This document shows positions 1-61,737 of a DNA stretch of 64,000 nucleotides, piece by piece. The stretch is from Candidatus Omnitrophota bacterium (lineage in GTDB: Bacteria; Omnitrophota; Gorgyraeia; Zapsychrales; Zapsychraceae). The stretch spans positions 5,747 to 69,746 of the forward strand of contig JAJDCA010000026.1 in the NCBI GenBank assembly GCA_029261055.1, in the 5' to 3' direction. A model generated the notes under the pieces. The model ran no database searches, had not been told where the DNA came from, and was given only the letters and a program-made list of their open reading frames with translations. Position numbers and translations under genes: made by a program. The stretch's first letter is position 1. Every line of letters starts with the position of its first letter.

Positions 1-3000
1 GCACCACCGACCGCACCATTAATGCGTCGTCTACAGATTTCAACGACATCATTATTGGGGATGGCCTTATTGGCTACTGGAAGCTAGACGAAACTGCAGA
101 CGATGGAAGTTGTGACGGTACGAATGATGCGTGTGACAGTTCTGGGTATGGTAATCATGGGGAGTGGGAAAGTGCCCCGACTGCATCAACAGATACACCA
201 AAACCGTTTAAATTTACTAATACCGGAAGCTTGAATTTTAATGGAACGAGTGATTATGTGGATGTTGGGGGTATTGATGTTACAACAGCATTTACAATGG
301 GGGGGTGGGTAAAATTTGATCAATTAGGAGGTAAAAAACAAGCGTTAATAGCCAAGTCATTTAATGCTTACCAGTTGTTTGCAAGTGATAGTCTTGATCG
401 TGTATTGTTTCAAAGTAATAGTGAGACGCCAATAGCGTACACACATAGTTTTATAATCAATAACTGGTATCACATTATGTTAACGTTTAATACTACAGTT
501 GGCTATGTTTTGTATTTAGATGGAATAGCAGTTAAAAGTGATTCCACTACAACTGTTATCAATACAAATGATATTACAACTAAAATAGGCGCAACTTCAC
601 AGACTCCACAGAATTTCCTTGATGGCCTCATTGACGACGTCCGTATTTACAACCGTGCATTATCAGCTACAGAAGTGAAGGCCTTAGCGCAATCGAAAAT
701 GCTGGAGGGTAAGGAGGGGACGTACACGTTGGCGTCGGCTTTGGATGTGGATGGAGATATTACTTTGGCGGATGGGACATTGGATGTGTCGGGGACGCCG
801 TACAATATTAATGTGGCGGGGGATTGGAATAATTATTCCGGGGTGAATGGGTTTACGGCGCGGACGGCTACTGTCGATTTGGATGGGGCGCCGACGACGC
901 AGAATGTGCGGGGGTCTACCAACTTCTACAATTTCGAAATAAGCACATCCACCGCGCAGACGGTTAACTTCGAAAGCGGCGCGTCGCAGACGATTGTGGC
1001 GAATGGGTCGCTGACGTTGACGGGGGCGTCGGGGCAATTGCTTACCCTTGCACCACTTACGGCCGCTACGGATTGGTTATTGGATTTTGACGGGGCGACG
1101 CAGTCGGTGCAGTATGTGTCGGTGTCGTATTCGGATGCGAGTAATGGGACGACGATTGATGCCTCCGACGGTACGAGTACGGATGGCGGGAATACGACGA
1201 ATTGGTTTTTTGCGCAGAATATCAGCGGGACCACGAATCTCTCGAGCGGTCGCGTGAAAGTCGCGGTCAACTCCAACCTCCGCGCCTCAACCACCGACAT
1301 CTCAGGCAGTGTGTGGACCGTGAGCAGCGTGACGTACACCAGCGGCGACATCATCACCGTGTTTGTCGATGGCGAGGCCGAGTCCACCGAATCCACCGCC
1401 GTCACCAAACACGACGGCTCCGGCGCCATCACCGGCATGGTTCTTAATCAGAACGTGCTCTCCATCGGAAGCGCCGACGACCAAAGCCTGACCGGCACAA
1501 ACTTAGGCCTTTACGACAATGCCGATGACGAAGACATCATGCACATGTTCACAGCAGCGAACATCCTCACCATCGACGCTTCGGCCGCGTACACGAACGA
1601 AATGCTCGACATCCTCTCCGGCGACACGCTTACGATCGCGACCGACGAAACCTTAGAAGCCCACAACGTCAACATCAGCGGAACTTTAACGGCGACAGGC
1701 AGCGCCACGCTCCACGTATCGGGAAGCTGGACCAACGCCGGCACCTTCACCACCAACACCTCCCACATCATGTTTACCGGAACCGAGAGCGAAACCTTAA
1801 CGAGCGGCGGCACAACCTACAACGACGTCACGCTCAACGACGGGTTGGTGGGGTATTGGAAATTAGATGAGACGTCTGTAGGTTCAACAGTTGTGGATTC
1901 GTCTGGATATGGTTATGATGGAACCCCACAGGGAACAGGAGGTGGAAATAATTTACCTCAACCCAATGCGGATGTACCGCAATTAAATTTTAAAAATGTC
2001 CAGAGTTTAGATTTTGACGGAACAGATGATTATGTAGACATTTCGTCAGGATTTGTTACTAACCAATCTGCATGTTCTGTATCTTTTTGGGCGAATATTG
2101 ATAGTGGATCAGCTACCGGGCTAACTGTTTATAGTGAAGGAATTCCAAGTGCTTGGGTGAACAGTCTTTTTATTATTTATTATGGAGATACATCTGATAC
2201 TGCAACTCCATCTGTGCGTGTTTTTTTCAGGGATGCTGCTGCAGCAGGAGGAACTCTTCTTGATTCAGATACAAGTATAAATCTTGCTGATAGTTCATGG
2301 CATCATGTGGCGTATGTTCAACGAGCAAGTAATGATCGTGAGATTTACATTGATGGAATAAGTCGTGATACAGATGCAAATAATATTTCACCAATTGTTC
2401 CAACGTCCTCATCTATTGGTGCAGCCAATAATAATGGAACTTTTAGCCAATTTATTAATGGTTTGGTTGATGACGTCCGTACTTACAGCCGTGCGCTTTC
2501 GGCTGTAGAAATTGCCCGTTTGGCGGTTGGGCGTCAACCGGCAACGGGGAGTGGGACGTACACGTTGCAGGATGCATTGGATGTGAATGGGGATCTCGCG
2601 CTCAACAGCGGGACGTTGGATGTGAATACGAACAAAGCGGTGACGGTGGCGGGGAGTTGGATGAATCACGGTGGTATCCTCACCGCTGGAAGCGGCACGG
2701 TGACACTCGATGGCACAGCGACCGGTAAGACCTTGCTCTCCGGCCAACAACAATTCAACAACCTCACCGTCAACGGCACGGGTGGCGCGTGGACATTCAA
2801 CGATGATGCGACCGTCTCTGGCGCGTTGACATTGATAGACGGAACTCTGACTCATTCAACCTTGCTCGATGTCGTCACCTTCACCGGCGACTTCCCTGTA
2901 GCCAATGCCAACGCGACCTTTGCGGGGGTCGAATCCACCTTCATCATCGATGGCGACCTCAGCTTAACGGCCGGAACTTTCACCGCCCCAAGCGAAAGCC

Positions 3001-6000: not shown

Positions 6001-7388
6001 CCTTCACCGCCCCAAGCGAGAGCCTGATTATCACCGGCGCTTACACCCACACCGGCGGCACCTTCAGCCACAATAGCGGAACAGTCCTCATGACCAGCAC
6101 CACCGACCGCACGATCAACGCCACCTCCACCACCTACAACGACCTCATTATCGGGGATGGCTTGGTAGGATACTGGAAACTGGATGAAACCACTGGCAGC
6201 ACTGCCACCGACTCCAGTGGCTACGGTAACAATGGTACGTGGACAAATTCTCCGACAGCTTCTACCGACACCCCCAAACCCTTCAAATTCACCAACACCT
6301 GGAGTTTGAGTTTTGATGGGACGGATGATTATGTGGATATGGGAGATGTTTTGGAAATGACAGAAGCTAACGGAATAACCTTGTCTGCCTGGGTAAATGC
6401 AAGTAGTTTAACAGCGAATGGAGCGGTTATTGATAAATTAGGGGGTAACGGTAATTATAGGCTTCAAGTAAATGCTTCTGGTCAGGTTCGTTTTGGGATA
6501 CGAGATGCAGTAAGTTCTTACGAGGAGATGCTCACCACAGATACTTTATCAACTAATCGATGGTATCACCTTGCAGCAACTTTTGATGATGTGACAACTG
6601 GTAAAATTTATATTGATGGAGAGCTTAAAAAGACAAAAACAGATTTTACTCTTACACGAGGTGATACAGCTGATTCTTTAAAGATAGGATACACTTCGAA
6701 TAATGCTCAATATTTTAATGCTAAAATTGATGACGTCCGCATCTACAATCGTGCGCTTTCGGCATCTGAGGTAAGTGCACTTGCACAATCAAAGGTGTTG
6801 GAAGCCAAGGAAGGGACATACACATTGGCATCGGCGTTGGATGTGGATGGGGATATTACGTTGGCGGATGGGACGCTGGATGTTTCGGCGACGCCGTACA
6901 ACATCAACGTCGCCGGCGACTGGAATAATTATTCCGGGGTGAATGCCTTTACCGCTCGCACCGCAACCGTTGACCTGGATGGGGCGCCGACGACGCAGAA
7001 TGTTCGCGGGTCGACGAATTTTTACAATTTTGAAATCAGCACGTCCACCGCGCAGACCGTCAACTTCGAAAGCGGTGCGTCGCAGACAATCCTTACTAAC
7101 GGATCGTTGACACTCACCGGTGCTGCAAGCAATCTTTTAACGCTTGCCCCATTGACAGCCGCCACGGATTGGTTGCTCGACCTTTCTTCCGGCGCGTCGC
7201 AGTCGGTGTCGTATGTGTCGGTATCGTATTCGGATGCGAGTGCGGGGGCGACGATTTTGGCGAATGATGGGACGAACACGGATGGGGGGAATACGAACAA
7301 TTGGCGGTTCAGGGCATTGCTAATTATGCCGATTTTGGTGAGTTTTGTGGGGTTTGGTGTATGGAGACGCCATTTATGGCGTCTCTGA
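1..7388 (+). CDS. Giant repetitive surface protein, 5'-truncated by the window edge. Tandem LamG/concanavalin-like jelly-roll domains are separated by two alternating conserved linker types
   Basis: Frame 3 is open from nt 3 (TTDRTINASSTDFNDIIIGDGLIGYWKLDE...) to the stop at 7386-7388. The LamG hallmark LVGYWKLDE ... WHH ... DDVRIYNRALSAxEV recurs at about nt 70, 1846, 3133, 4936 and 6160. A hydrophobic stretch ALLIMPILVSFVGFGV and a basic tail end the protein. Confidence 0.85.
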   Translation, partial: TTDRTINASSTDFNDIIIGDGLIGYWKLDETADDGSCDGTNDACDSSGYGNHGEWESAPTASTDTPKPFKFTNTGSLNFNGTSDYVDVGGIDVTTAFTMGGWVKFDQLGGKKQALIAKSFNAYQLFASDSLDRVLFQSNSETPIAYTHSFIINNWYHIMLTFNTTVGYVLYLDGIAVKSDSTTTVINTNDITTKIGATSQTPQNFLDGLIDDVRIYNRALSATEVKALAQSKMLEGKEGTYTLASALDVDGDITLADGTLDVSGTPYNINVAGDWNNYSGVNGFTARTATVDLDGAPTTQNVRGSTNFYNFEISTSTAQTVNFESGASQTIVANGSLTLTGASGQLLTLAPLTAATDWLLDFDGATQSVQYVSVSYSDASNGTTIDASDGTSTDGGNTTNWFFAQNISGTTNLSSGRVKVAVNSNLRASTTDISGSVWTVSSVTYTSGDIITVFVDGEAESTESTAVTKHDGSGAITGMVLNQNVLSIGSADDQSLTGTNLGLYDNADDEDIMHMFTAANILTIDASAAYTNEMLDILSGDTLTIATDETLEAHNVNISGTLTATGSATLHVSGSWTNAGTFTTNTSHIMFTGTESETLTSGGTTYNDVTLNDGLVGYWKLDETSVGSTVVDSSGYGYDGTPQGTGGGNNLPQPNADVPQLNFKNVQSLDFDGTDDYVDISSGFVTNQSACSVSFWANIDSGSATGLTVYSEGIPSAWVNSLFIIYYGDTSDTATPSVRVFFRDAAAAGGTLLDSDTSINLADSSWHHVAYVQRASNDREIYIDGISRDTDANNISPIVPTSSSIGAANNNGTFSQFINGLVDDVRTYSRALSAVEIARLAVGRQPATGSGTYTLQDALDVNGDLALNSGTLDVNTNKAVTVAGSWMNHGGILTAGSGTVTLDGTATGKTLLSGQQQFNNLTVNGTGGAWTFNDDATVSGALTLIDGTLTHSTLLDVVTFTGDFPVANANATFAGVESTFIIDGDLSLTAGTFTAPSESLIITGAYTHTGGTFSHNSGTVLMTSTVDRTINATSTTFNDIIIGDGLVGYWKLDETSTPAVDSSGYGNDGIWTNSPTASSDTPKPFKFANTGSLDFDGVDDRVDVGDPDILDMGTNDFTLTAWVKANSTQTDTHPTIINKGGSSDPVAGYWFALTSGTKLWVGIGDGTSRATFDGATDIRDDTWHHVAAVVDRDGNGTIYLDGAVDGTPDDISSHATKNIDTDVYAFGIGGRAGSDIQFTGIIDDVRVYKRALSAVEVKALAQAKVLEAKEGTYMLASALDVDGDITLADGTLDVSGTPYNINVAGDWNNYSGVDAFTARTATVDLDGAPTTQNVRGNTNFYNFEISTSTAQIVNFESGASQTVVANGSLTLTGASGQLLTLAPLTAATDWLLDFDGATQSVQYVSVSYSDASAGTTIDATDGTSTDGGNTTNWFFAQNISGTTNLSSGRVKVAVNSNLRASTTDISGSVWTISSVTYTSGDIITVFVDGEAESTESTAVTKHDGSGAITGMVLNQNVLSIGSADDQSLTGTNLGLYDNTDDEDIMHMFTAANILTIDASANYTNEMLDILSGDTLTIATDETLEAHNVNISGTLTATGSATLHVSGSWTNAGTFTANSSHLMFTGTESETLTSGSTSYNDLTLNDGLVGYWKLDEASGSTATDSSGYGNDGTHTNSPTISSIVPSVNFVNPRSLEFDGANNYVEIIDTGIWDFQTGEYAVSFWFKTSGSAREHALHFGSLSANNLDFDFNDGGYGIWVYWMSGGGNYVRTTDFYNDGSWHHLVVSRNSSGTTLYVDNIVKDQDSGLDNIDIASNGLIGSAIGDHYWDGFLDDVRIYNRELSTTEVARLAAGRQPATGSGTYTLQDALDVNGDLALNSGTLDVNTNKAVTVAGSWMNHGGILTAGSGTVTLDGTASGKTLLSGQQQFNNLTVNGTGGEWTFNDDATVSGTLTLTDGTLTHSTLLDVVTFTGDFPVANANATFTGVESTFIIDGDLSLTAGTFTAPSESLIITGAYTHTGGTFSHNSGTVLMTSTTDRTINATSTTYNDLIIGDGLVGYWKLDETTGSTATDSSGYGNNGTWTNSPTASTDTPKPFKFTNTWSLSFDGTDDYVDMGDVLEMTEANGITLSAWVNASSLTANGAVIDKLGGNGNYRLQVNASGQVRFGIRDAVSSYEEMLTTDTLSTNRWYHLAATFDDVTTGKIYIDGELKKTKTDFTLTRGDTADSLKIGYTSNNAQYFNAKIDDVRIYNRALSASEVSALAQSKVLEAKEGTYTLASALDVDGDITLADGTLDVSATPYNINVAGDWNNYSGVNAFTARTATVDLDGAPTTQNVRGSTNFYNFEISTSTAQTVNFESGASQTILTNGSLTLTGAASNLLTLAPLTAATDWLLDLSSGASQSVSYVSVSYSDASAGATILANDGTNTDGGNTNNWRFRALLIMPILVSFVGFGVWRRHLWRL
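7364..7385. repeat. REP-like 22-nt palindrome GAGACGCCAT-TT-ATGGCGTCTC (10-bp arms), forming the last codons and stop of the giant gene
   Basis: Perfect inverted repeat read directly. The same sequence recurs at 7943-7964 and 17545-17566, and in inverse orientation (loop AA) at 7716-7758 and 7894-7919. Confidence 0.8.
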
Positions 7389-7408
7389 TCAAATATACGG
7401 AATCATAA

Positions 7409-8124
7409 TGCCACAAAAATATAAAGGGAAATACCGAATAAAATCAATCAGGATACCTAATTATGATTATTCATCCAATGGAGCCTATTTCGTCACCATT
7501 TGTGTTCGGGATGGCAGACATTTTTTTGGAGAAATATTAGAAGGGAAGATAAAATTATCAGAATATGGAAAGATAGCCACAAAATATTGGCATGAAATTT
7601 TAGATCGTTTTTCATTTGTCATCGCGGATGAATTTATTGTCATGCCAAACCATGTGCATGGGATTATTGTTATTGATGCTTCAGGGCAGAGGAAAAAGGA
7701 TTTGATAAATTATGGAGACGCCATAAATGGTGGAGACGCCATAAATGGCGTCTGTACGTTGGGGGGAGGGATGACGGGGAAGCATAATCCGATGTTGTCG
7801 TCGCATTCATTGTCGAAGATTGTGCGGTGGTACAAAGGACGTGTTACGTATGAGATACGAAAGATACAGAATTATGGAGACGCCATAAATCGCGGAGACG
7901 CCATAAATGGCGTCTGTACGAAGGGAACATCGGAATACGTAAAGACGCCATTTATGGCGTCTCCAATCAAAAGAGACGCGATTCATCGCGTCTCTGTTTG
8001 TAGGTTTCAATGGCATCCTCGGTTCCACGATCACATTATCCGCAATGAACAATCCTTACGCGAAATCCGTCAATACATTCGGGATAATCCTATGAAATGG
8101 GATGATGATCCGGAGAATATGTAG
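7409..8124 (+). CDS. REP-associated tyrosine transposase (RAYT; IS200/IS605 TnpA-like Y1 HuH transposase) with in-frame REP-derived insertions
   Basis: N-terminal block IRIPNYDYSSNGAYFVTICVRDGRHFFG, HuH motif MPNHVHGIIV, and C-terminal block RFHDHIIRNEQSLREIRQYIRDNPMKW with the catalytic-Tyr context. Compare E. coli RayT, which has HMHCIW ... RFWEHAIRN ... YIYINPVKHGW. The likely start is ATG 7409, not the track's 7345; nt 7345-7408 translate a REP (GDAIYGVS). Confidence 0.75.
7716..7758. repeat. Tandem REP copies (GGAGACGCCATAAATGG + TGGAGACGCCATAAATGGCGTCTG) inside the RAYT ORF; they translate as GDAINGGDAINGVCT
   Basis: Direct reading. Same palindrome family as 7364-7385, in the opposite orientation. 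Confidence 0.75.
7876..7995. repeat. Cluster of REP copies and variants inside the RAYT ORF (7876-7890 half site, 7894-7919, 7943-7964, variant AGAGACGCGAT-TC-ATCGCGTCTCT at 7972-7995)
   Basis: Direct reading. They translate as GDAINRGDAINGVCT ... TPFMASPIKRDAIHRVS. Confidence 0.7.
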
Positions 8125-9842: not shown

Positions 9843-9918
9843 TTAGGGGCGTGATGAATCATGCCCGTACGGCGGGTGTGTTATTCGTAGGGGCATAATT
9901 TATTATGCCCATGGTTCA
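9843..9918. repeat. Pair of GTAG-headed GGGC...GCCC palindromic hairpins (GGGCGTGATGAATCATGCCC; GGGCATAATTTATTATGCCC) in the divergent ppiD-like/hisG intergenic region
   Basis: Inverted repeats read directly. The first copy is about 25/28 identical to a coding segment at 62476-62503. Confidence 0.5.
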
Positions 9919-17091: not shown

Positions 17092-17538
17092 ATGGCGAAT
17101 TTAAATAAGGTATTTTTAATCGGAAATTTAACTCGAGACCCGGAATTACGATATACTCCGGGTGGAACAGCTGTGGCAAATTTGGGCTTGGCTGTTAATA
17201 GAAAATTTAAAGATAGTACGGGTGAATTGAAAGAAGAGGTTTGTTTTTTAACTGTTACAGTTTGGGATAAGCAGGCTGAGGCTTGTTGCCAATATTTAGT
17301 GAAAGGGCGACCTGTTTTTGTTGAAGGTGTTCTTCAATCAAGATTTTGGGAGACATCTGATGGTCAAAAGCGTAGTGCTATTGATGTACGGGCTGAACGC
17401 GTTCAGTTTTTAGGAAGCTATGGTGGGGGTAAAGAAAAAGATACAGAGAAAACAGAGAAAGCAACGGGAGAAACTGTTGCTGCTGGATCTAATCAAAGCG
17501 AAACCATTAAACCTGAAGATGTTGTTTGGGATGAGTAA
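17092..17538 (+). CDS. ssb: Single-stranded DNA-binding protein
   Basis: MANLNKVFLIGNLTRDPELRYTPGGTAVANLGLAVN, an OB fold and a Gly-rich tail. Confidence 0.9.
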   Translation: MANLNKVFLIGNLTRDPELRYTPGGTAVANLGLAVNRKFKDSTGELKEEVCFLTVTVWDKQAEACCQYLVKGRPVFVEGVLQSRFWETSDGQKRSAIDVRAERVQFLGSYGGGKEKDTEKTEKATGETVAAGSNQSETIKPEDVVWDE

Positions 17539-17544
17539 AACATA

Positions 17545-17566
17545 GAGACGCCATTTATGGCGTCTC
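17545..17566. repeat. REP palindrome GAGACGCCATTTATGGCGTCTC between ssb and rpsR
   Basis: Identical 22-mer to 7364-7385. Confidence 0.8.
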
Positions 17567-18307: not shown

Positions 18308-19620
18308 AAGTCCCCCCCCAGAACATTGACGCAGAGAAATCTGTTTTAGGCGCCATGCTTATTGATGAGGACGCCATTGGCTTTGCTGTTGAAATTCTAA
18401 ATGAAGCGTGGTTTTATGAGCACTCCCACCGTACTATTTTTCGGGCGATAACTGATCTTTATCAGGGCCGAAAAAATGTCGATCTCATTACACTTTCCGA
18501 TCAATTAAAAAACGATGGGCTTCTTGAGCAGATTGGAGGTTCAACGTACCTTTCCGAACTTATTGATTTTGTTCCTACGGCAGCCAATGTCGAGCATTAT
18601 GCGCGCATAGTCAAAGAAAAGGGTATTTTGCGGAAGCTTATTCAAAATGCTACGTCTATCGTTACAGAAAGCTATGATGTTAAAACCACTATCGAAGATG
18701 TTGTAGATAACGCAGAACGTCTTATTTTTGAGATTGCTGATTTAAAACAAAGCCAAAAGTCTGTTCATATCAAAGACCTTGTGAAGGAAGGGATTGAAAC
18801 GATTGATAAATTGTATCAACGTAAGGAGCATCTTACGGGCATTGAAACTAAGTTTTCTAAACTTGATCAAATGACTTCAGGATTACAAAAGTCAGATTTG
18901 ATTATTCTTGCCGCCCGTCCATCTATGGGGAAAACGGCATTGGCCATTTCTATTGCTGAAAATGTGAGTGTTGGGAACGATGTCGGCGTTGCTGTTTTTA
19001 GTCTTGAGATGTCAAAAGAACAGTTGGTTCAGCGTATGTTGTGTTCACAGGCTCGTGTTGATGCCCATAAAGTACGGTCTGGTTTTTTGTCGCCTGCAGA
19101 TTGGCCAAAATTGACAGCGGCCGCCGGAAAGCTTTCATCATCAAAAATATTTATTGACGATACGCCTGCCATTACTGTATTGGAGTTACGCGCAAAAGCG
19201 AGGAGATTAAAGGCGCAAAATGATATTCAACTTATTATTTTGGACTATATTCAGCTTATGCGCAGTGTCCATAAGACAGATAATCGTCAGCAGGAAATTT
19301 CTGAAATTTCACGTTCTTTAAAAGCTTTGGCCCGTGAGTTAAGTATTCCTATGGTTGTTTTAAGTCAGTTGTCCAGGGCCGTTGAATCCAGGCAAGATAA
19401 AAGACCTCAACTTTCTGACTTGCGTGAATCTGGTGCTATTGAGCAGGATGCCGATGTTGTTGTATTGCTTATGCGTGAAGAATATTACAATCCGACGGAA
19501 GAGAACGCTGGGGTTACCGATTTGATTATTGCGAAACAGCGAAATGGCCCGGTTGGAACTGTAAAGCTTTCATTTGTAAAGGAATACATGCGCTTTGAAA
19601 ATCTTGCACATGTTGATTGA
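18289..19620 (+). CDS. dnaB: Replicative DNA helicase
   Basis: PPQNIDAEKSVLGAML N-terminal domain; Walker A GARPSMGKTA; RecA-like C-terminal domain. Confidence 0.9.
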   Translation: MGHQKIKVPPQNIDAEKSVLGAMLIDEDAIGFAVEILNEAWFYEHSHRTIFRAITDLYQGRKNVDLITLSDQLKNDGLLEQIGGSTYLSELIDFVPTAANVEHYARIVKEKGILRKLIQNATSIVTESYDVKTTIEDVVDNAERLIFEIADLKQSQKSVHIKDLVKEGIETIDKLYQRKEHLTGIETKFSKLDQMTSGLQKSDLIILAARPSMGKTALAISIAENVSVGNDVGVAVFSLEMSKEQLVQRMLCSQARVDAHKVRSGFLSPADWPKLTAAAGKLSSSKIFIDDTPAITVLELRAKARRLKAQNDIQLIILDYIQLMRSVHKTDNRQQEISEISRSLKALARELSIPMVVLSQLSRAVESRQDKRPQLSDLRESGAIEQDADVVVLLMREEYYNPTEENAGVTDLIIAKQRNGPVGTVKLSFVKEYMRFENLAHVD

Positions 19621-19645
19621 CAGGCAAGAATAATAATTCTATAAT
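19617..19645 (+). promoter_or_regulatory. Consensus sigma70-type promoter TTGACA-N17-TATAAT upstream of bamA
   Basis: TTGACA at 19617-19622 and TATAAT at 19640-19645, with an exact 17-nt spacer. Confidence 0.55.
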
Positions 19646-19665
19646 CAATCCGAAAAAAACATTGA

Positions 19666-19743
19666 CCGTACAGGAAAGTATAAAACTTTCCTGTCGGCAC
19701 CAAAAATACGCCGTCAGGTTGTTGCCAAAGACGATTTTCTTGG
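19666..19743 (+). promoter_or_regulatory. 78-nt conserved 5'-UTR motif with an 8-bp stem (CAGGAAAG-TATAAAA-CTTTCCTG); a second copy is at 61604-61680
   Basis: The two copies are about 85% identical, and the stem base pair covaries (C-G versus T-A). Confidence 0.5.
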
Positions 19744-23740: not shown

Positions 23741-25069
23741 ATGACTCGAAAACAGCAGACAATTAAAGAAGAATTTTCCCTTTCAGGGGTCGGTGTGCAT
23801 ACAGGATGTCAGGTACACTTGACGTGTCAGCCTGCAGGAGAAAATGAAGGGATTAACTTTATCCGCATAGATTTACCCAATAAGCCCGTTATTAAGGCTA
23901 ATTTGTCAAATGTATGTATAGATTCAAAAATTACACGATGCACATCGCTTAGATCAGGTGATGCAATCGTTCACACGGTTGAGCATATCATGAGTGTTTT
24001 ATGTGGCCTTGGCATTGATAATTTAAATATTTTGCTTGATGCCGAAGAGGTTCCTGTTTTAGATGGAAGTGGGATTGATTTTTTTAAAGCCTTTCAAAAT
24101 GTGGGCATTATTGAACAAAATGTAGAATTTCAATTTTATAAAATTATGGAACCCATTGGAGTAGAGCATAATGGATGTGCTATTTATGTTTTTCCAAGTG
24201 ATCAACTTAAAGTTTCGTATTCTCTCGACTACAAACATCCTTTTTTAGGGTCGCAGTTTTTTAATTCTATTGTTGATGAAACCGTGTATGAAAAAGAAAT
24301 TGTTTCTTGTCGGACATTTTGTTTGGAAGAGGAAGCTGATGAGTTGCGGAAGCATGGGTTAGGCAAAGGGGCTAATTATAAAAATACTTTAGTCGTTGGG
24401 GAAAAGGGGGTCAAAGAAAATCAAGTGCGTTTTCCTGATGAATTTGCCCGGCATAAAGTTCTTGATTTGATTGGAGATTTGTATTTATTAGGCATGCCTA
24501 TTCGTGGGCATATTTTTGCGACAAAAAGTGGACATGATTTAAATAGACGATTATTAAAGAAAATTTATCAGCAGAAAAAGAAATATGATAAGCGAGAAGA
24601 AAGAAGTAATTATGATTTTAACGGGAAAGAAATGGATATTCAGGGTATTATGAAGGTTTTGCCGCATCGATATCCATTTTTACTGGTTGATCGTGTCATA
24701 GAAATTGAAAAGGGGAAAAAAGCTATAGGAATTAAGAATGTTACCATGAATGATGACTTTTTTCGGGGGCATTTTCCAACACGACCTGTTATGCCGGGGG
24801 TGTTAATGGTGGAGGCTATGGCGCAGACGGCAGGGGTTATCATATTGACTAATGAGAAACATCGTGGTAAAGTATCTTTTTTTATGGCCGTGAATAATGT
24901 TAAATTTAGAAAGGTTGTTTCGCCAGGCGATCAATTGATTATGGAAGTGGAAATTGTAAAAGATAAGTCAAGAGTATCCCAAGCGAAGGCAAAGGCTAAA
25001 GTAGGTCAGGATGTCGTTGCTGAAGCTGATATGACATTTTCATTTACAGATGCTTCTTATTTAGATTAA
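23741..25069 (+). CDS. lpxC-fabZ: Bifunctional UDP-3-O-acyl-GlcNAc deacetylase / 3-hydroxyacyl-ACP dehydratase (LpxC-FabZ fusion)
   Basis: LpxC N-terminal half (FSLSGVGVHTGCQVHL ... HKVLDLIGDL) and FabZ C-terminal half (LPHRYPFLLVDRV ... FFRGHFP..PVMPGVL). Confidence 0.85.
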   Translation: MTRKQQTIKEEFSLSGVGVHTGCQVHLTCQPAGENEGINFIRIDLPNKPVIKANLSNVCIDSKITRCTSLRSGDAIVHTVEHIMSVLCGLGIDNLNILLDAEEVPVLDGSGIDFFKAFQNVGIIEQNVEFQFYKIMEPIGVEHNGCAIYVFPSDQLKVSYSLDYKHPFLGSQFFNSIVDETVYEKEIVSCRTFCLEEEADELRKHGLGKGANYKNTLVVGEKGVKENQVRFPDEFARHKVLDLIGDLYLLGMPIRGHIFATKSGHDLNRRLLKKIYQQKKKYDKREERSNYDFNGKEMDIQGIMKVLPHRYPFLLVDRVIEIEKGKKAIGIKNVTMNDDFFRGHFPTRPVMPGVLMVEAMAQTAGVIILTNEKHRGKVSFFMAVNNVKFRKVVSPGDQLIMEVEIVKDKSRVSQAKAKAKVGQDVVAEADMTFSFTDASYLD

Positions 25070-25135
25070 TTAGGAATTTCTAGCTTTAAAGAAATTCCAA
25101 AAGGGTCTAATTCCCCGAGGCTTGCCCCGAGGAGT
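25067..25135. repeat. 69-bp dispersed repeat that begins with the stop codon TAA and contains a GGAATTTCT/AGAAATTCC hairpin; identical copy at 58753-58821
   Basis: Exact 69/69 match between the two loci. Confidence 0.8.
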
Positions 25136-25148
25136 TTCACTGTATTCT

Positions 25149-31198: not shown

Positions 31199-31325
31199 TA
31201 AGAGAAGTAGAGATGTAAAGAGAAGTAAGAAGTAAAGAAGCAAGAAGCAAGAAGCAGAGAGGTAAAGAGATGAATTAACTTTTTTGTTTTTTCTCTGCAT
31301 TTTGCTGCTTGCCTCTTTGCTTCAT
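31199..31325. repeat. Purine-rich arm (GAAGTARAG.. units) plus a complementary pyrimidine-rich arm forming a long imperfect hairpin immediately 5' of the mcsA RBS
   Basis: The same architecture recurs at 46888-47008, 58828-58920 and 61556-61720. Confidence 0.6.
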
Positions 31326-36392: not shown

Positions 36393-36396
36393 TTTT

Positions 36397-36490
36397 ATTT
36401 AGGAATTTTGATGCTTTAACGAAATTCCAAACGGGTTTAATACCCCGCAGCTCGCTGCAGCTGATAGGGTTCAGGGCTTGCCTTGGGGTT
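36397..36490. repeat. Divergent copy of the post-stop hairpin repeat family (GGAATTTT...GAAATTCC, GGGTTTAATACCC, GCAGC-TC-GCTGC)
   Basis: Same architecture as 25067-25135 and 58753-58821. Confidence 0.5.
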
Positions 36491-36648
36491 CATGCCTTTG
36501 ATTTTAAGAAATATACGTTTTAAGAAAGAATTGTATCATTATCTGATAAAACAAGTTACAAAATATTTAAATTTACCTGCCTGAAAATAATTTTATAACA
36601 TGATTTATTGTAATGAGTTATGAAATTCTTCATTAAATTCCCCTCCTC

Positions 36649-36676
36649 TTGACACTTGCCAGAAATATGTTATCTT
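36649..36676 (+). promoter_or_regulatory. Promoter TTGACA-N16-TGT-TATCTT (extended -10) of the giant gene
   Basis: Aligns with TTGCCG-N16-TGT-TATCCT at 61431-61458 upstream of the paralogue. Confidence 0.5.
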
Positions 36677-36682
36677 TTCAGT

Positions 36683-36765
36683 ATATTAGTAAGAAAACGC
36701 TTTTTTCCACAAAATTGTACCAATAGCTCTGTCTATCGACAGGTAGTCCTGCCACGGATTGGTTA
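36683..36765 (+). promoter_or_regulatory. Conserved structured 5' leader (GAAAA..TTTTC hairpin; ACCAAT ... ATTGGT closing stem around an internal CTGTC-TATC-GACAG hairpin; GCCACGGATTGGT)
   Basis: Duplicated at 61465-61546. The internal hairpin is replaced there by a different palindrome, CCTGCATGCAGG. Confidence 0.5.
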
Positions 36766-36847
36766 TGAGTTGTAAATAATCAGTACATATTTATTTACAA
36801 TCTCTTAAATTTTAAAAAAATAAATGTAGAGATGTACGTCTTTAATT

Positions 36848-36868
36848 AAACGTAGCAACGCTACGTTT
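36848..36868 (+). promoter_or_regulatory. Perfect 9-bp hairpin AAACGTAGC-AAC-GCTACGTTT 10 nt upstream of the RBS of the giant gene
   Basis: Direct reading. Confidence 0.5.
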
Positions 36869-36887
36869 CTACAACATAGGAGAAGAA

Positions 36888-39800
36888 ATGAATATTTACA
36901 TAAAAAAACAACGTTTTTGTAGTATTTACAGGATTTTATCCGCATTTATTGCCGTAGCATTCTTAACCACCACCATTGTGCCGCAAGGATATGCCAATAC
37001 AGTGATCAGTGCGCCATTGTCAGGGATCAATTTGCCTGTGCCAGGTACTATGCTGGGAATGACCGAAAGTTTTACGCCGGTTATGGTTAAGGGTGTGACC
37101 ATTCATCCGGACAATCCGCTGCGGTTTGATTTTATTGTGGATACGGGAAATACAGAATTAGGTCAGGGCGATGCTTTGCAGGAAGAAACCACCAAATTGG
37201 TCAAATATTTTTTGGCCGCGTTGACAGTGCCGGAAAAAGAGATGTGGGTCAACCTCAGTCCGTATGAAAAAGATCGTATTATTGCCGATGGTCTGGGGCA
37301 AACCGATATGGGCCGCGATATGTTGGCACAAGACTATCTACTGAAACAAGTTACAGCTTCACTCATGTATCCGGAAGAAGAGCTAGGCGAAAAGTTTTGG
37401 ACGCGTGTGTATGCGCGCGCACAAGAGGAATTTGGGACAACCGATATTCCGATGAACACGTTTAATAAAGTTTGGATAGTGCCGGAAAAGGCCGTTGTGT
37501 TCGAAGATGAAAAAACATCAAGCACGTATGTGTTGGAAAGCCATTTGAAGGTCATGTTGGAAGAAGATTACGAGGCAATGGAACATAATGTGGATCGTAG
37601 GGGTTTGATTCATCAAACCCAAGATAAGGGCATGATAAATCATGCCCCTACGGATATCATCCGCGAACTCCTCATTCCCGAAATCGAAAAAGAAGTCAAT
37701 CAAGGTAAAACCTTCGCCAATTTACGTCAAATCTACAACTCCATGATCTTAGCCGCATGGTACAAACAAAACCTCAAAGACAGCCTATTAGGCAAGATCT
37801 ACATGGATCAAAACAAGACCAAAGGCATCGACACCGAAGACAAACAAATTACCCAAAAAATTTACGATCAATACATATCCTCCTTCAAAAAAGGCGTGTA
37901 TGACTACATTAAGGAAGACTATGATTCAGCTACGCAGCAAGTTGTGCCAAGAAAATATTTCTCCGGAGGGCTGAAGATGGGGATTGATCTTTCAATGTTG
38001 GATACCAAAAAAGGACGTGGAAATATTACAAGACTTGATGCAGAAAATGTGGGAGAAATTTTAAAATTTGGATACGACATGGTTGATTTAGGCATGGGTT
38101 CCGCAAAGATTGTAAAAATCAAACAGGCGATTAATAATGCAACGTATGGGGATAACTCCATGGTAGCAAGTGAACAAGGGCTGAAAATATCTCAATATAT
38201 CCGGGAGGGGTTTGATAGTGACGTGGAAAGAGAAAAAAGAGCAGCAGTTATTGAAGCACTTTATGATCATGTGGATGTTTTACGAAAACAGTTTAAATCA
38301 GCTTCAGCTGTCGCTGATCTTCCTGTTTTTTTTCGGACAATTTCAGATTATTTGGAGAATGAAGCATTTTTAGAAATATTAAAAGAAAAGGTTTTGACTG
38401 AAGAAAAATACAACACAAGAATATCGACAGAAGATGATTTTTTAAAGGTTATTGCGGAATTTAAAGAGATCTTAGAGATAAAATCTAGCAGCACGATAGT
38501 TGAATCTGGTGTTTGGACAGCAGTGGAAAAAATAGCAGAGATATCATTTTATTTTAGTGGTTTACACGAAACAAAATGGTCTGCAACTTATCATAAAAGT
38601 AACATTGCTATGTTTTTGGCAGAAGGGATCATGGCAGAGTCAAAAGATGTAGAGAAAGAAAAGAAAATAAAAGAAAACGCTCTTAATCTTCTAGAGGGTA
38701 CAAAGAGTTTGTTTGATCGTATTCTTTTGAACGAAAAAAATGAAGAGTATACAGATGTATTCAAAAACCTTAATCAAAAGTTAGTCAACAATATAAAAAT
38801 TTTAGACTTAGAAAGTGAGGCGGCGAAGTTGCAATATTCTCTTGAGGAATACGAAGAAGACCTGGATGCATTTGAAAATAATTTGAATCAACATTTATTT
38901 GATGTTTTTCAAGAATTTATGGGGGATATTCCAAAAGTGGATGGTTTTATTAAGGAAGTAAGAAAAACACTTAATAATATTCAAAATAAAACAGGGAGTA
39001 GATTGAAACTCATCGCTGAAGAATTGAATAAAGCGATTGATGCTTTGGAGTTGGATGTCGCCATGAGTACAGAGGTGACGTCGCTTTCTGACGAAGGTGT
39101 TAAGCTTACTCAATGGGATGATATGGATGAATGGATCTTGGCGGGAGGGAGTGGATGGGGTAGTACATACAATAGAGATCAGGAGATACATGATGGAAAT
39201 TCTTATTTTACTGATACAGCAATAGAAGAAATTTATTATCGAGACAAAATTAATTCTTCTGGTAAGGTTATGGTTATAAAACTTAAATTAAAGGTTATAG
39301 AAACAATAGTTAAAGATAAAAAAATAGACATTAATGTTCCAGAGGTGATTATTGAAACAAATGAGAATAAAGAATTTGATATTGTTGTGAACGCTGATAA
39401 AAGAAAAATAAATTTTATGATTTGGAAGGCAAAATATAATATTACGATTGTTTTTAAGGATTCTAATAGTGAATTTCAAAAAATATTTTTAAATTTTGAT
39501 AAATATCAAAATATTATGAAAAATCCCGAGTCTTTTCGTAAAATTATACAGGATAAATTTATAGCAAGTGAGTATCTGGTGAAGTTAGTAGAAGAAAAAC
39601 TTGGGGAGATAGTGCAAGATGCTACAAATTCTCTTGATCCGATAGAGCTGAACAGTATTATGTCTGAAATTAATAATGTTAAAGAAATTTTGACCCAAGA
39701 AAAGGAAAATACAGAATTCTTAAATAAAATAAAACAAAAATTAAAAAATTTATTTTTAGCTATGGGGTCAGTTAATAGGCGGAAGAAGATAGAATTTATT

Positions 39801-46887: not shown

Positions 46888-47008
46888 AAAAAAAGAAGTA
46901 AAGAAGCAGAGAGGCAAGAGGTAAAGGTACAAGAAGTAAAGAGGTAAGAGGCAGAGGTTAAAGTTTTTTCTTTGCTTCTCTATTTCTTACTCCTCTGCTT
47001 CTTTTAAC
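46888..47008. repeat. Purine-rich / pyrimidine-rich hairpin repeat directly 5' of the RBS of the PIN-TRAM gene
   Basis: GAAGTAAAGAAGCAGAGAGGCAAGAGGTAAAG ... CTTTGCTTCTCTATTTCTTACTCCTCTGCTTCTT. Confidence 0.6.
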
Positions 47009-47021
47009 CAAGGAGTCGCTG

Positions 47022-47999
47022 ATGACATTAATATTCATTCGTTTATTTTTTACCTTAATCATGGGGTTTTTGGGGTTTTATGTTGGAACGACAATGTATC
47101 AACCTTTGTATGGTTTTCTTTCCGGGTTAGGGTTTGGTTTATTTTTCATCGTAATGGAAATGAGCTTACGGCGGGTCTCTGTTCGCGGTTTGTCCAGTAT
47201 GGTTTTTGGCCTTTTGCTAGGGGTTTTTATGGCAAAATTAGTGGCTGATGTTTTGTCATTATTGCCTTTAAGTGAATTTGTTCAATCTATGTCTCGGGTT
47301 ATTTTGACATTTGTTTTTTCTTATTTGGGGGCGGTGATGGCGTTGAGAGGGAAGGATGAATTTAATGTTATTATTCCATACATTAAATTTCGGCGGGAAG
47401 GTATTAAGGAAGGGGTTATTCTTTTAGATACAAGTGCAATTATCGATGGAAAGATTTCAGATATTTATAAAACACATTTTTTAAGTGGACGTTTGGTTGT
47501 TTTAAGATCTGTTTTGCATGAATTACAAAAATTAGCAGACTCAGCGGATGACATCAAAAGACAACGGGGTCGTCGTGGGATGGAGTTATTGCGTCTTATG
47601 CAGCATGATTCCAAAATAGATATTCATATTCATGAGGATGAAATGGAAGAATCTATGGATGTTGATGCTCGTTTGGTGCGCATAGCAAAAGTAATGGATG
47701 CCAGAATTTGTACTATCGATTTTAATTTGGGAAAGATAGCGGCATTACAGGGGGTGGACATATTAAATATTCATGACTTGGTCAATGCAGCTAAGTTTGT
47801 TGTGTTTACCGGGGAACAATTTGAAATTAAGTTGGTTAAAGAAGGTAAAGAATCTAATCAGGCTGTGGGGTACATGAATGATGGCACCATGGTGGTGGTG
47901 CGTGATGCACAGGATTGTATTGGTGAGACAGTCAAAATTACGGTTACATCTGTTTTGCAAACGCAGGCCGGCAAAATGATTTTTGCGGATTTAATTTAA
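47022..47999 (+). CDS. yacL: PIN/TRAM domain membrane protein (YacL-like)
   Basis: Two N-terminal TM helices, a PIN domain (ILLDTSAIIDG) and a C-terminal TRAM; occupies the conserved position between radA and ispD. Confidence 0.75.
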   Translation: MTLIFIRLFFTLIMGFLGFYVGTTMYQPLYGFLSGLGFGLFFIVMEMSLRRVSVRGLSSMVFGLLLGVFMAKLVADVLSLLPLSEFVQSMSRVILTFVFSYLGAVMALRGKDEFNVIIPYIKFRREGIKEGVILLDTSAIIDGKISDIYKTHFLSGRLVVLRSVLHELQKLADSADDIKRQRGRRGMELLRLMQHDSKIDIHIHEDEMEESMDVDARLVRIAKVMDARICTIDFNLGKIAALQGVDILNIHDLVNAAKFVVFTGEQFEIKLVKEGKESNQAVGYMNDGTMVVVRDAQDCIGETVKITVTSVLQTQAGKMIFADLI

Positions 48000-58088: not shown

Positions 58089-58755
58089 AGCTTCAACACG
58101 AAATTACAGCTTGGCGGTTTCCGATGAGGAAAAGGTTGTTGCTTACAAAAATTTTAGACTTAAGAATGTGCTTTCATCATCCGTCATGCCGGGCATCAAA
58201 AGTGTTTTAGATAAATCTGGAATTCCGCTCAATAAATTGGATGGGTTTGCGGTGGGATTAGGTCCAGGGTCGTTTACCGGTTTGCGTGTGGGATTAGCAA
58301 CGATACAAGGGCTTATTTTTGCCACGCAAAAACCTGTGGTGGGTATTTCCAGTTTAGATATTTTAGCGGCCAACGTCACTACAGAGGTGGAGCAAATTTG
58401 TGTCATCACGGATGCCAAGCGTAGCATGGTGTTTTCATGTGTGTACCAACGGAAAGGATCTCAGCTCAAGAAGCTAAGCCCGTATGTTTTAGCACCGGTC
58501 GAAGATGCCCTTAAAAATATTAGCGGCGCAACGATTTTTGTTGGGGATGGTATTGCTTTGTATCACGAGCGAGTTGTGCAGTTTTGTCGTGGAAAATTTG
58601 CCATTACGTTTGCCGCAGAAAAATTATGGAGCCCTCAAGCCCGGCGAGCTGTTCCTTTAGTTTTAGAAAGATTTCGTCAGAAAAAAGTCGACAAGATTGA
58701 AAAGTTATTACCTTTGTATTTGTATCCAGAAGATTGTCAAGTTAGGAGAAGTTAA
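58069..58755 (+). CDS. tsaB: tRNA threonylcarbamoyladenosine biosynthesis protein TsaB
   Basis: YeaZ-like N-terminus; tsaE-tsaB order. Confidence 0.75.
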
Positions 58756-58821
58756 TTAGGAATTTCTAGCTTTAAAGAAATTCCAAAAGGGTCTAATTCC
58801 CCGAGGCTTGCCCCGAGGAGT
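58753..58821. repeat. Second identical copy of the 69-bp post-stop hairpin repeat; it supplies the tsaB stop codon
   Basis: 69/69 identical to 25067-25135. Confidence 0.8.
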
Positions 58822-58827
58822 GTCATT

Positions 58828-61310: not shown

Positions 61311-61430
61311 ATTTCTTTATTTGAAGGGGTATTGGGACTTTTTCATAAAATAATTAAAATATTTTTTTAATAAAACTGTAACTAATTGGTATTAAATATG
61401 TTGTAGTAAGAATTATTTGACCTCCCACCC

Positions 61431-61458
61431 TTGCCGATTGTCCAGAATATGTTATCCT
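61431..61458 (+). promoter_or_regulatory. Promoter TTGCCG-N16-TGT-TATCCT, paralogous to 36649-36676
   Basis: Alignment of the two leaders. Confidence 0.45.
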
Positions 61459-61464
61459 TTCAGC

Positions 61465-61546
61465 GTACAACGTAAGAAATCGGTTTCTTAACAATATCCT
61501 ACCAATAAAGGCCTGCATGCAGGTTTTAACCTCGCCACGGATTGGT
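61465..61546 (+). promoter_or_regulatory. Second copy of the conserved structured leader (hairpin GAAA-TCGG-TTTC; ACCAAT ... CCTGCATGCAGG ... GCCACGGATTGGT)
   Basis: Aligned with 36683-36765; covarying internal hairpin. Confidence 0.5.
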
Positions 61547-61555
61547 AATTCTTGA

Positions 61556-61720
61556 AAAGAAGTAAGAATCAAGGTGTAGAGAATTAGGTAATTATTTTTT
61601 TTACCGCATAGGAAAGCATAAAACTTTCCTATCGGCATTGAAAATACGCCTTCAGGTTATCGCCAAAGGCGATTTTCTTGTTTCTCTACCTCGTATTCCT
61701 CTACTTCTTTCTTTACTTAA
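61556..61720. repeat. Purine arm (61556-61587) and pyrimidine arm (61681-61720) of the hairpin-repeat family, here enclosing the bamA-type 78-nt motif
   Basis: AAGAAGTAAGAATCAAGGTGTAGAGAA versus TTCTCTACCTCGTATTCCTCTACTTCTT. Confidence 0.55.
61604..61680 (+). promoter_or_regulatory. Second copy of the bamA 5'-UTR motif
   Basis: About 85% identical to 19666-19743. Confidence 0.5.
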
Positions 61721-61737
61721 CCCAAGGAGAAAATCCA

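Follow-up and report, generated by a model that had tools for sequence, protein, structure and literature searches.

Bacterial genomes carry several kinds of interspersed structured repeat, among them REP/BIME, BOX, ERIC, Rickettsia palindromic elements (RPEs), and palindrome-associated transposable elements (PATEs). The RAYT-associated REP/BIME sequences are imperfect palindromes of 20-40 nucleotides (nt) headed by GTAG or GTGG and are commonly found in inverted pairs. Here, we analyzed a stretch of 64,000 nt (the window) from contig JAJDCA010000026.1 of a Candidatus Omnitrophota bacterium, in which a 78-nt sequence occurs twice, once in the 5' untranslated region (UTR) of bamA and once in the leader of a giant gene. 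The Omnitrophota are uncultured, ultra-small, and probably host-dependent bacteria for which, to our knowledge, non-coding repeat families have not been reported before. An earlier note on the window, made from the sequence alone, had considered the pair either as a regulatory element shared by two envelope and surface genes or as a small mobile repeat. Our analysis favors the latter: the 78-nt sequences probably belong to a short interspersed repeat, non-coding and built of two hairpins, whose copies have spread across Candidatus Omnitrophota genomes by insertion. Like other interspersed structured repeats, it is present in many copies in non-homologous contexts, has discrete ends and a stable predicted structure, and is non-coding. 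It is best filed as a new family within this known kind, specific to the Omnitrophota and unusually deeply conserved.

RESULTS

Two copies of a two-hairpin unit in the window

A repeat search of the window detected an 81-nt pair at positions 19662-19742 and 61600-61680 with 85% ungapped identity. Pairwise alignments agreed, and BLASTN gave E = 1.7e-19. The element proper comprises 78 nt, at 19665-19742 (copy A) and 61603-61680 (copy B), both on the plus strand. The duplication of about 85% identity reported in the earlier note was thus recovered, with its borders shifted by one base. No third copy was found in the window: both conserved tail blocks, searched with up to three mismatches, were confined to these two sites (chance expectation, 0.15-0.24 matches in the window), and a covariance model of the family, R1 (see below), detected nothing beyond copies A and B. 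The model scored copy A (19659-19742) at 51.9 bits (E = 4e-08) and copy B at 65.4 bits (E = 3.7e-11). Each window copy is the closest relative of the other. Outside the window, the nearest relative of copy B is the copy on L143 (82.5% identity), where L-numbers denote metagenome loci (contigs) fetched for comparison.

Both copies were predicted to form the same two hairpins, H1 and H2, which were more stable than all 200 shuffles (z = -4 to -6). In copy A, H1 (19666-19697) consists of the arms CCG.A CAGGAAAG and CTTTCCTG.CGG around the loop TATAAAA, as judged from the minimum-free-energy fold and the covariation of the outer stem across the family. H2 together with the 3' tail TTG (19702-19742) has the base AAAAAT...ATTTTC and a variable interior in the predicted fold. 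In copy B, H1 (61604-61635) folds as CCG.AT AGGAAAG / CATAAAA / CTTTCCT AT CGG, and H2 with the tail TTG (61640-61680) has the base GAAAAT...ATTTTC and an inner hairpin ATCGCC-AAA-GGCGAT; a terminator scan scored this H2 as terminator-like on both strands. The 8-bp stem noticed earlier, closed by C-G in copy A and by U-A in copy B, was borne out by both sequence and fold. A T8 run (61595-61602) lies directly left of copy B on the same strand; this is the T-rich left flank typical of the family and is probably the insertion target. Copy A is the most degenerate member of the family, having no T-run at its left, a C-A mismatch that makes the inner H2 stem imperfect, and a score well below the 75-93 bits that are typical. 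This degeneracy is consistent with a tolerated passenger.

Size, architecture, and structure conservation of the family

A metagenome scan with the H1 core GGAAAGNATAAAACTTTCC yielded at least 120 loci, and among the matches listed, ~50 show the whole architecture. The covariance model R1 was built from 37 members and finds 55 members at E < 1e-5 in the 0.31 Mb of sequence searched, giving a family size of at least 55. Judged from the window and from L250-L253, the density is approximately one copy per 20-30 kb. The proteins neighboring several copies are named Candidatus Omnitrophica or Omnitrophota or have only such named relatives, and the carriers are only 65-73% identical to their nearest database relatives in BamA and IspG. 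Searches against Rfam detected only tRNA in the window at the gathering threshold, only sub-threshold chance hits for copy A at E <= 10, and nothing on the element in twelve family loci. No description of the core sequence or of Omnitrophota repeats was found in the searchable literature, and viral contigs gave only chance matches. A scan of species-representative genomes with the H2 block AAAATACGCCNTCAGGTT returned 109 matches, all of which were rejected as chance 18-mer matches without flanking similarity; the window-type H2 subtype was not found among these genomes.

The unit is 55-180 nt long and comprises, from 5' to 3', a T-rich left run, H1, the linker CTGAAA, H2, and the fixed 3' end TTTCTTG. 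H1 has the form (A)TGGTRT-AGGAAAG-TATAAAA-CTTTCCT-A-ACCA, with an inner stem AGGAAAG/CTTTCCT, a TATAAAA loop, and a covarying outer stem. The base of H2 is kept (GAAA.../...UUUC), and its interior is variable and open to other insertions. At least three H2 subtypes were distinguished: a window-like subtype, GAAAATCGC...ATCGC-GAA-GCGATTTTC; a subtype with an extra hairpin between GAAACTTCG and CGAAGTTTC; and a minimal subtype, GAAAGC-TTC-GCTTTC. Two subfamilies occur together on contig L222. No acceptable -35/-10 pair was found within the element on either strand, nor was a conserved promoter found upstream of family members. A mini-ORF (open reading frame) ATG GTR TAG at the 5' end was considered and rejected, as it is not conserved and is missing from both window copies.

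The paired positions were then compared across the family. In an alignment that was itself fitted to the model, 93% of the paired cells held standard pairs; the share was 83% after column shuffling and ~50% when the partners were slid. Of the 21 pairs, 14 had changed on both sides, and none of 500 shuffles reached any observed measure. The outer H1 stem alternates among TGGT/ACCA, CCG/CGG, CCC/GGG, CAGT/ACTG, and CTGC/GCAG, and the H1 closing pair is mostly U-A, with six members having C-G and two having G-C. In the basal stem of H2, all nine pairs covary with changes on both sides. The paired positions contained 27 G-U and 31 A-C combinations. The wobble pairs carry no strand signal, and therefore RNA and single-stranded DNA are not distinguished as the selected structure.

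Insertion into unrelated sites

Copies that are 96-99% identical lie in unrelated flanks (L154 and L212, L131 and L189, and L140 and L189). The ends are sharp: in the flank profile, information content climbs at the T6 run and is at background immediately past TTTCTTG. No terminal inverted repeats were found, the 5' end (A)TGGT... not being complementary to the 3' end ...TTTCTTG. Also, no target-site duplication was seen; the left flank is T-rich and the right flank has no conserved sequence.

The copy on L231 (1416-1515) forms an in-frame insert of 34 amino acids in the ORF of a PIF1-family helicase (653-2062, minus strand). Residues 17-184 of this helicase correspond to residues 4-172 of PDB entry 8bns_A, and residues 219-466 correspond to residues 176-430. 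The 34 additional residues (HGVGKYKTFLTTETSQGRVLSSPTLLANEVSC) represent the translation of the element and are located between the 8bns_A-equivalent residues 172 and 176. On reading the sequence of this copy, one frame per strand of the element is free of stop codons. The T-run of L231 consists of the host codons AAA ATT TTC (K-I-F), whose Phe aligns with Phe172 of 8bns_A; the T-run is therefore target or flank and not cargo. Elsewhere, a DegT-type aminotransferase on L183 has its C-terminus replaced by the element, and on L189 the copy runs antisense within a 601-amino-acid ORF. Furthermore, L219 (2536-5764) and L224 (3397-169) are 99.97% identical over 3.2 kb starting exactly from the 5' end of the element, and their upstream sequences are unrelated. 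In L219, a truncated Tex-like N-terminal domain is joined via the element to a TPR protein. The break between L219 and L224 reflects either a rearrangement at the repeat or an assembly join (chimera) caused by it. These results show a discrete two-hairpin unit inserting 3' of T-rich runs with neither terminal inverted repeats nor target duplication.

Several other identities for the unit or its flank were tried and rejected. The left T-run is not usually the tail of an upstream terminator, as a hairpin directly precedes it in 3 of 48 copies, compared with 5% of random positions. A CRISPR repeat (a hairpin followed by (A/C)TTGAAA) was dismissed, there being no repeat-spacer arrays and the unit having a fixed non-repeat 3' half. 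An integron attC site, IS91 (with its CTTG target), and poly(A)-tailed minus-strand retroposition were each considered; none of them fits all the ends, and the L231 T-run is host sequence.

Family members are themselves sites of insertion. A separate repeat of ~46 nt (CTAAAAAGGATAG-ACCTTCC...GGAAGGGTC-TAAT, also read as CTAAAAAGGATAG...GGTCTAAT) is nested at three positions inside them: at 5547-5592 of L222, inside H2 on L134 and L181, and inside the 3' arm of H1 on L175. This repeat apparently adjoins TAA or TAAT and is a second small mobile element of the Omnitrophota. Further inserts are located in the H1 loop of some copies.

The bamA locus and the giant-gene leaders

Copy A is situated between dnaB and bamA in the conserved block rpsF-ssb-rpsR-rplI-dnaB-bamA-skp-lpxD, and its 3' end lies 7 nt before the bamA ATG (19750). 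The TTGACA-N17-TATAAT promoter (19617-19645, plus strand) matches the consensus at 12 of 12 positions, overlaps the dnaB stop codon, and is host sequence outside the repeat. Both this promoter and the 7-nt gap had been noticed earlier and were confirmed. BamA homologues place the window in Candidatus Omnitrophota, the nearest other genomes being 70-73% identical in BamA. We compared eight orthologous dnaB-bamA spacers (L111, L113, L115, L116, and L250-L253) with that of the window. A TTGACA-N17-TATAAT(C) promoter overlapping the dnaB stop codon (GATTGACA) is kept in all nine Omnitrophota loci. By contrast, the covariance model detected the repeat in none of the eight orthologous bamA leaders. 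Past the -10 box, these leaders range from 26 to ~140 nt and are mutually unrelated in sequence. When 19665-19742 is removed from the window, a 28-nt bamA leader ending in GGAGAAAAATG is left, which falls in the size class of the short orthologous leaders. As an observation in its own right, bamA-skp-lpxD appears to possess its own strongly conserved promoter, beyond which the leaders are unrelated.

The closest relative, L115 (BamA 73% identical), carries in its bamA leader (2900-2990) an H2-like stretch, ATAAGCCTTCAGGTTAT...AGGCTATATTTTTTT, that matches copy B at 16 of 17 positions and in the tail, and resembles H2 of copy B more than copy A does. The stretch alone is not statistically significant (nhmmer, E ~1). 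It is possibly the relic of a decayed orthologous copy, or possibly an independent insertion. The sequence TTCAGGTTA is present twice in the same leader.

Copy B is located between a PIN-domain gene and the giant gene whose ATG is at 61737. The downstream giant ORF is partial and contains a Response_reg domain, in agreement with the REC domain assigned earlier. A paralogue of the giant gene at 61737 starts at 36888, and ~125 nt of upstream leader are common to the two. The leader of the paralogue (36640-36768, plus strand) is homologous to 61417-61549 and contains neither the repeat nor any model hit, providing an empty comparison site. Insertion of the unit is polymorphic. The shared region of ~125 nt (CTTG.C..TTG.C...AATATGTTATCYTTTCAG ... 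TACCAATA-hairpin-GCCACGGATTGGTWAT) is a candidate promoter plus structured leader specific to giant genes.

A separate leader hairpin encloses copy B. Its purine-rich 5' arm (61556-61586, plus strand) was identified from inverted repeats, and its pyrimidine-rich 3' arm (61683-61714, plus strand) from inverted repeats and folding. With copy B in its apical loop, this hairpin gave a 191-nt fold with ΔG = -55 kcal/mol (z = -6), so the earlier description of copy B as lying in the loop of a purine/pyrimidine hairpin was correct. The counterpart leader hairpins at 46888-47006 and 36825-36873 have no insert. Long purine-rich/pyrimidine-rich hairpins of this type (AAGAAGTAAAGAAG... with ...CTTCTTTACTTCTT) were observed at 46888-47006, 31204-31296, 61556-61714, and 36825-36873, directly upstream of the start codons at 47022, 31284, 61737, and 36888, respectively, and represent a second, separate class of leader structure or repeat.

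Neighboring genes

Most copies are intergenic, some lie in gene ends, and at least one is in frame within a gene. The downstream genes encode GcpE/IspG, BioB, SSB, a DinB-type polymerase, a ZIP transporter, a DUF362 Fe-S protein, an ArsP permease, an AAA ATPase, and a DUF4912 protein, and no association with one functional class of downstream genes was found. When the flanking gene pairs were read in the frame of the element, 22 were +,+, six were -,-, two were divergent, and none was clearly convergent. On L190, the terminator of a c-di-GMP-I riboswitch is followed first by the element and then by a hypothetical ORF of 500 amino acids, which places the element within a regulated 5' UTR. c-di-GMP-I riboswitches were observed in Omnitrophota contigs at L190 4522-4608 and L135 3823-4006; the L135 match extends over 184 nt against a model of 87 nt, which suggests an insertion inside the aptamer.

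Other repeats in the window

The window also holds repeats of other kinds. A dispersed 74-nt repeat (TTAATTAGGAATTTC...GAAATTCCAAAAGGG...CCCCGAGG) occurs at 25066-25139 and 58752-58825 (99% identical to each other) and at 36396-36469, and begins at or overlaps the stop codons of three unrelated genes. In addition, a perfect 22-nt palindrome, GAGACGCCATTTATGGCGTCTC, is present in six copies at 7356-7994 and 17537-17566. Five of these are clustered in 640 nt after the first giant gene and overlap a doubtful ORF of 259 amino acids (7345-8124). A similar palindrome, GGGCATAATTTATTATGCCC, was found at 9891-9910 and 37628-37647.

DISCUSSION

At least 55 members in unrelated contexts, with sharp ends, unrelated flanks, and an in-frame insertion in a PIF1 helicase, support the small mobile repeat of the earlier note. 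That note had added that many copies scattered at random, with neither gene-proximal bias nor covariation, would mean just another dispersed repeat. The copies are indeed many, but they show covariation and an orientation bias; the unit is therefore a structured dispersed repeat and not random junk. We infer mobility from the insertion pattern only, because no mobilizing gene was found beside any copy.

Several observations weigh against spread by insertion, or against its being the whole account. BLAST of the flanks revealed no empty sites among the fetched loci and no clean filled/empty pair from near-identical strains. No transposase or other mobilizing gene was detected beside the copies: the 212 neighboring ORFs are ordinary housekeeping genes with no recurrent transposase domain, and tblastn with IS200/IS608 TnpA gave no match in the window or in the family loci. 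The five innermost pairs of H1 are invariant partly because the search pattern demanded them. Among the copies with a flanking ORF no more than 400 nt away, 24 are oriented toward the downstream gene and six in the opposite sense. Copy B of the window and the L143 copy are 82% identical in nucleotides, whereas the SSB proteins of the same two genomes are only 47% identical in amino acids. L250 and L252, with 83.6% DNA identity over 22 kb, retain an orthologous copy between the same two genes, and the L252 copy is decaying yet carries a compensatory change in H2, from ATCGC/GCGAT to ATAGC/GCTAT. Deep conservation and the orthologous copy of L250 and L252 indicate that copies are long-lived and that their sequence and hairpins are constrained; the source of this constraint could be recognition by a mobilizing enzyme, a host function of the RNA, or both. 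The retention of orthologous copies, the deep conservation, and the orientation bias fit selection on the RNA at the host level at least as well as they fit purely selfish spread. A minority possibility, which overlaps with spread by insertion, is a host-selected module, a transcribed two-hairpin RNA useful in cis in many mRNAs, which might serve as a 5' or intercistronic stabilizer or a processing site, or might be bound by a conserved RNA-binding protein that recognizes H1 and the single-stranded U-run, CUGAAA, and UUUCUUG. Besides the excess of sense orientation, the element-to-SSB contrast, and the compensatory change, it is favored by the lack of copies between convergent genes, by 3' ends that often lie 4-60 nt before a start codon, by the L190 copy inside a riboswitch-regulated 5' UTR, and by the strong covariation of the stems. 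However, the spacing to start codons or promoters is not fixed, antisense, intra-ORF, and gene-3'-end copies exist, the excess of sense-strand wobble pairs expected under selection on RNA is not seen in the G-U and A-C counts, and copy A, in the leader of the essential bamA gene, is the most degenerate member.

Two readings in which the unit controls specific transcripts fare worse. As a transcription attenuator, a terminator, or a small RNA gene, H2 and the U-rich tail would end transcripts to give a small RNA of ~90 nt or an attenuated leader. For copy B, a scan reported ATCGCCAAAGGCGAT and the adjoining TTTCTTGTTT as terminator-like, the upstream A-tract pairs with the U-tract, and the promoter at copy A lies ~10 nt upstream of the element. 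Nevertheless, a terminator scan of copy A finds none, subfamilies 2 and 3 have the U-run within the stem, family members are preceded by no conserved promoter, and copies are not seen between convergent genes, a common place for terminators. The element also stands between the sole recognizable promoter and an essential gene at bamA, and on L250 an ftsX-like gene starts 15 nt past CTTG; an efficient terminator would be lethal at these sites because there is no room for a second promoter. We therefore consider this reading improbable. A dedicated cis-regulatory RNA or operator coordinating bamA with the giant surface gene, as the earlier note had suggested, is very improbable. Both window copies are in sense orientation in the 5' leaders of envelope or surface genes, downstream of promoters, but none of the eight orthologous bamA leaders contains the element and neither does the leader of the paralogous giant gene, family members are found in front of unrelated housekeeping genes, and there is neither a riboswitch-like conserved junction nor an Rfam match.

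For the repeat spread by insertion, we propose the following course. Units would insert directly 3' of a T-rich run, usually co-oriented with the neighboring genes. In the genome of the window, one copy would have landed downstream of the conserved bamA promoter, ahead of the ribosome-binding site of bamA, and its sister copy in the loop of the giant-gene leader hairpin. Both would be transcribed as 5' UTR passengers, because they lie within 5' leaders. Mobilization may proceed via a single-stranded DNA hairpin intermediate, following an IS200/IS605- or RAYT-like logic. Our best guess at the mobilizer, by analogy with these systems, is a trans-acting HUH/Y1-type enzyme, because the left flank resembles the 3' end of the unit, hairpins adjoin both ends, and the orientation is biased. 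The dissimilarity of the two hairpins and the short distance of 1-3 nt from the flank to the hairpin foot speak against a textbook IS200/IS605 derivative. 5' stem-loops stabilize mRNA, as for ompA in E. coli, and a 5'-proximal hairpin of this family could stabilize mRNA likewise. We infer that, once transcribed, the hairpins have no more than a modulating effect on mRNA stability or translation and are not a dedicated regulator.

A covariance model for the repeat has several uses. It prevents mis-annotation of copies as gene-specific regulators, explains assembly breakpoints such as that of L219 and L224, which diverge exactly at the element end, flags in-frame peptide insertions in proteins such as the PIF1 helicase, and offers a handle for finding the mobilizing enzyme. 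The conservation of the element, deeper than that of the surrounding proteins, is the one feature that possibly points beyond a selfish repeat. A bolder version, which we hold rather unlikely, is a phylum-wide, host-maintained module of RNA (or single-stranded DNA), in which a conserved protein of the Omnitrophota would recognize H1 and the conserved single-stranded U-run, CUGAAA, and UUUCUUG. This protein would be a new HUH-type mobilizing enzyme, specific for hairpins and directed at T-runs, or else a global factor for RNA binding or processing. If this were true, hundreds of mRNAs, including that of the essential bamA, would share one post-transcriptional handle.

Among known systems, the repeat combines features of several. 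Classical miniature inverted-repeat transposable elements (MITEs) and the Correia/NEMIS elements are likewise small, abundant, often located in 5' UTRs, and co-transcribed with their neighbors. However, the terminal inverted repeats and the target-site duplication (TA for Correia) that characterize classical MITEs are both lacking here. RPEs resemble the family in being hairpin repeats of ~100 nt that can sit in frame in protein genes and contribute a peptide segment, as the 34-amino-acid insert in the L231 PIF1 helicase does, but most copies of the present family are intergenic, the host phylum is another, and the sequences are unrelated. BOX elements of Streptococcus pneumoniae (boxA-boxB-boxC) are similarly modular, with conserved ends, a variable middle, an intergenic location, co-transcription, and a stable predicted fold. 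The two have no sequence similarity, and BOX is confined to one genus, whereas this family extends across deeply diverged Omnitrophota. REP sequences differ in that GTAG is found only in TGGTGTAGG variants of the family and not in the window copies (ACCGTACAGG and ACCGCATAGG); the units here, moreover, are 55-180 nt long with two different hairpins, and inverted doublets of them were not seen. In other respects, the family is like the IS200/IS605-derived PATEs and the REP/RAYT system, in which HUH Y1 enzymes act on hairpins of single-stranded DNA. In all of them the unit is short and non-coding, lacks terminal inverted repeats as well as a target duplication, bears a hairpin close to either end, is biased in orientation, and is present many times in a genome. 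They also insert 3' of a short conserved sequence resembling their own 3' end, which for this family is T-rich (TTTTTT+N, compared with TTTCTT+G). The structural features of PATEs are thus found here, namely subterminal hairpins, the lack of terminal inverted repeats and of target-site duplication, and insertion 3' of a T6 run, the last on the left side only. No TnpA or RAYT gene was found, whether among the 212 neighboring ORFs or by tblastn of the window and the family loci. The left and right hairpins of IS200/IS605 are alike, whereas the two of this family are unrelated in sequence and stand only 1-3 nt from the flank.

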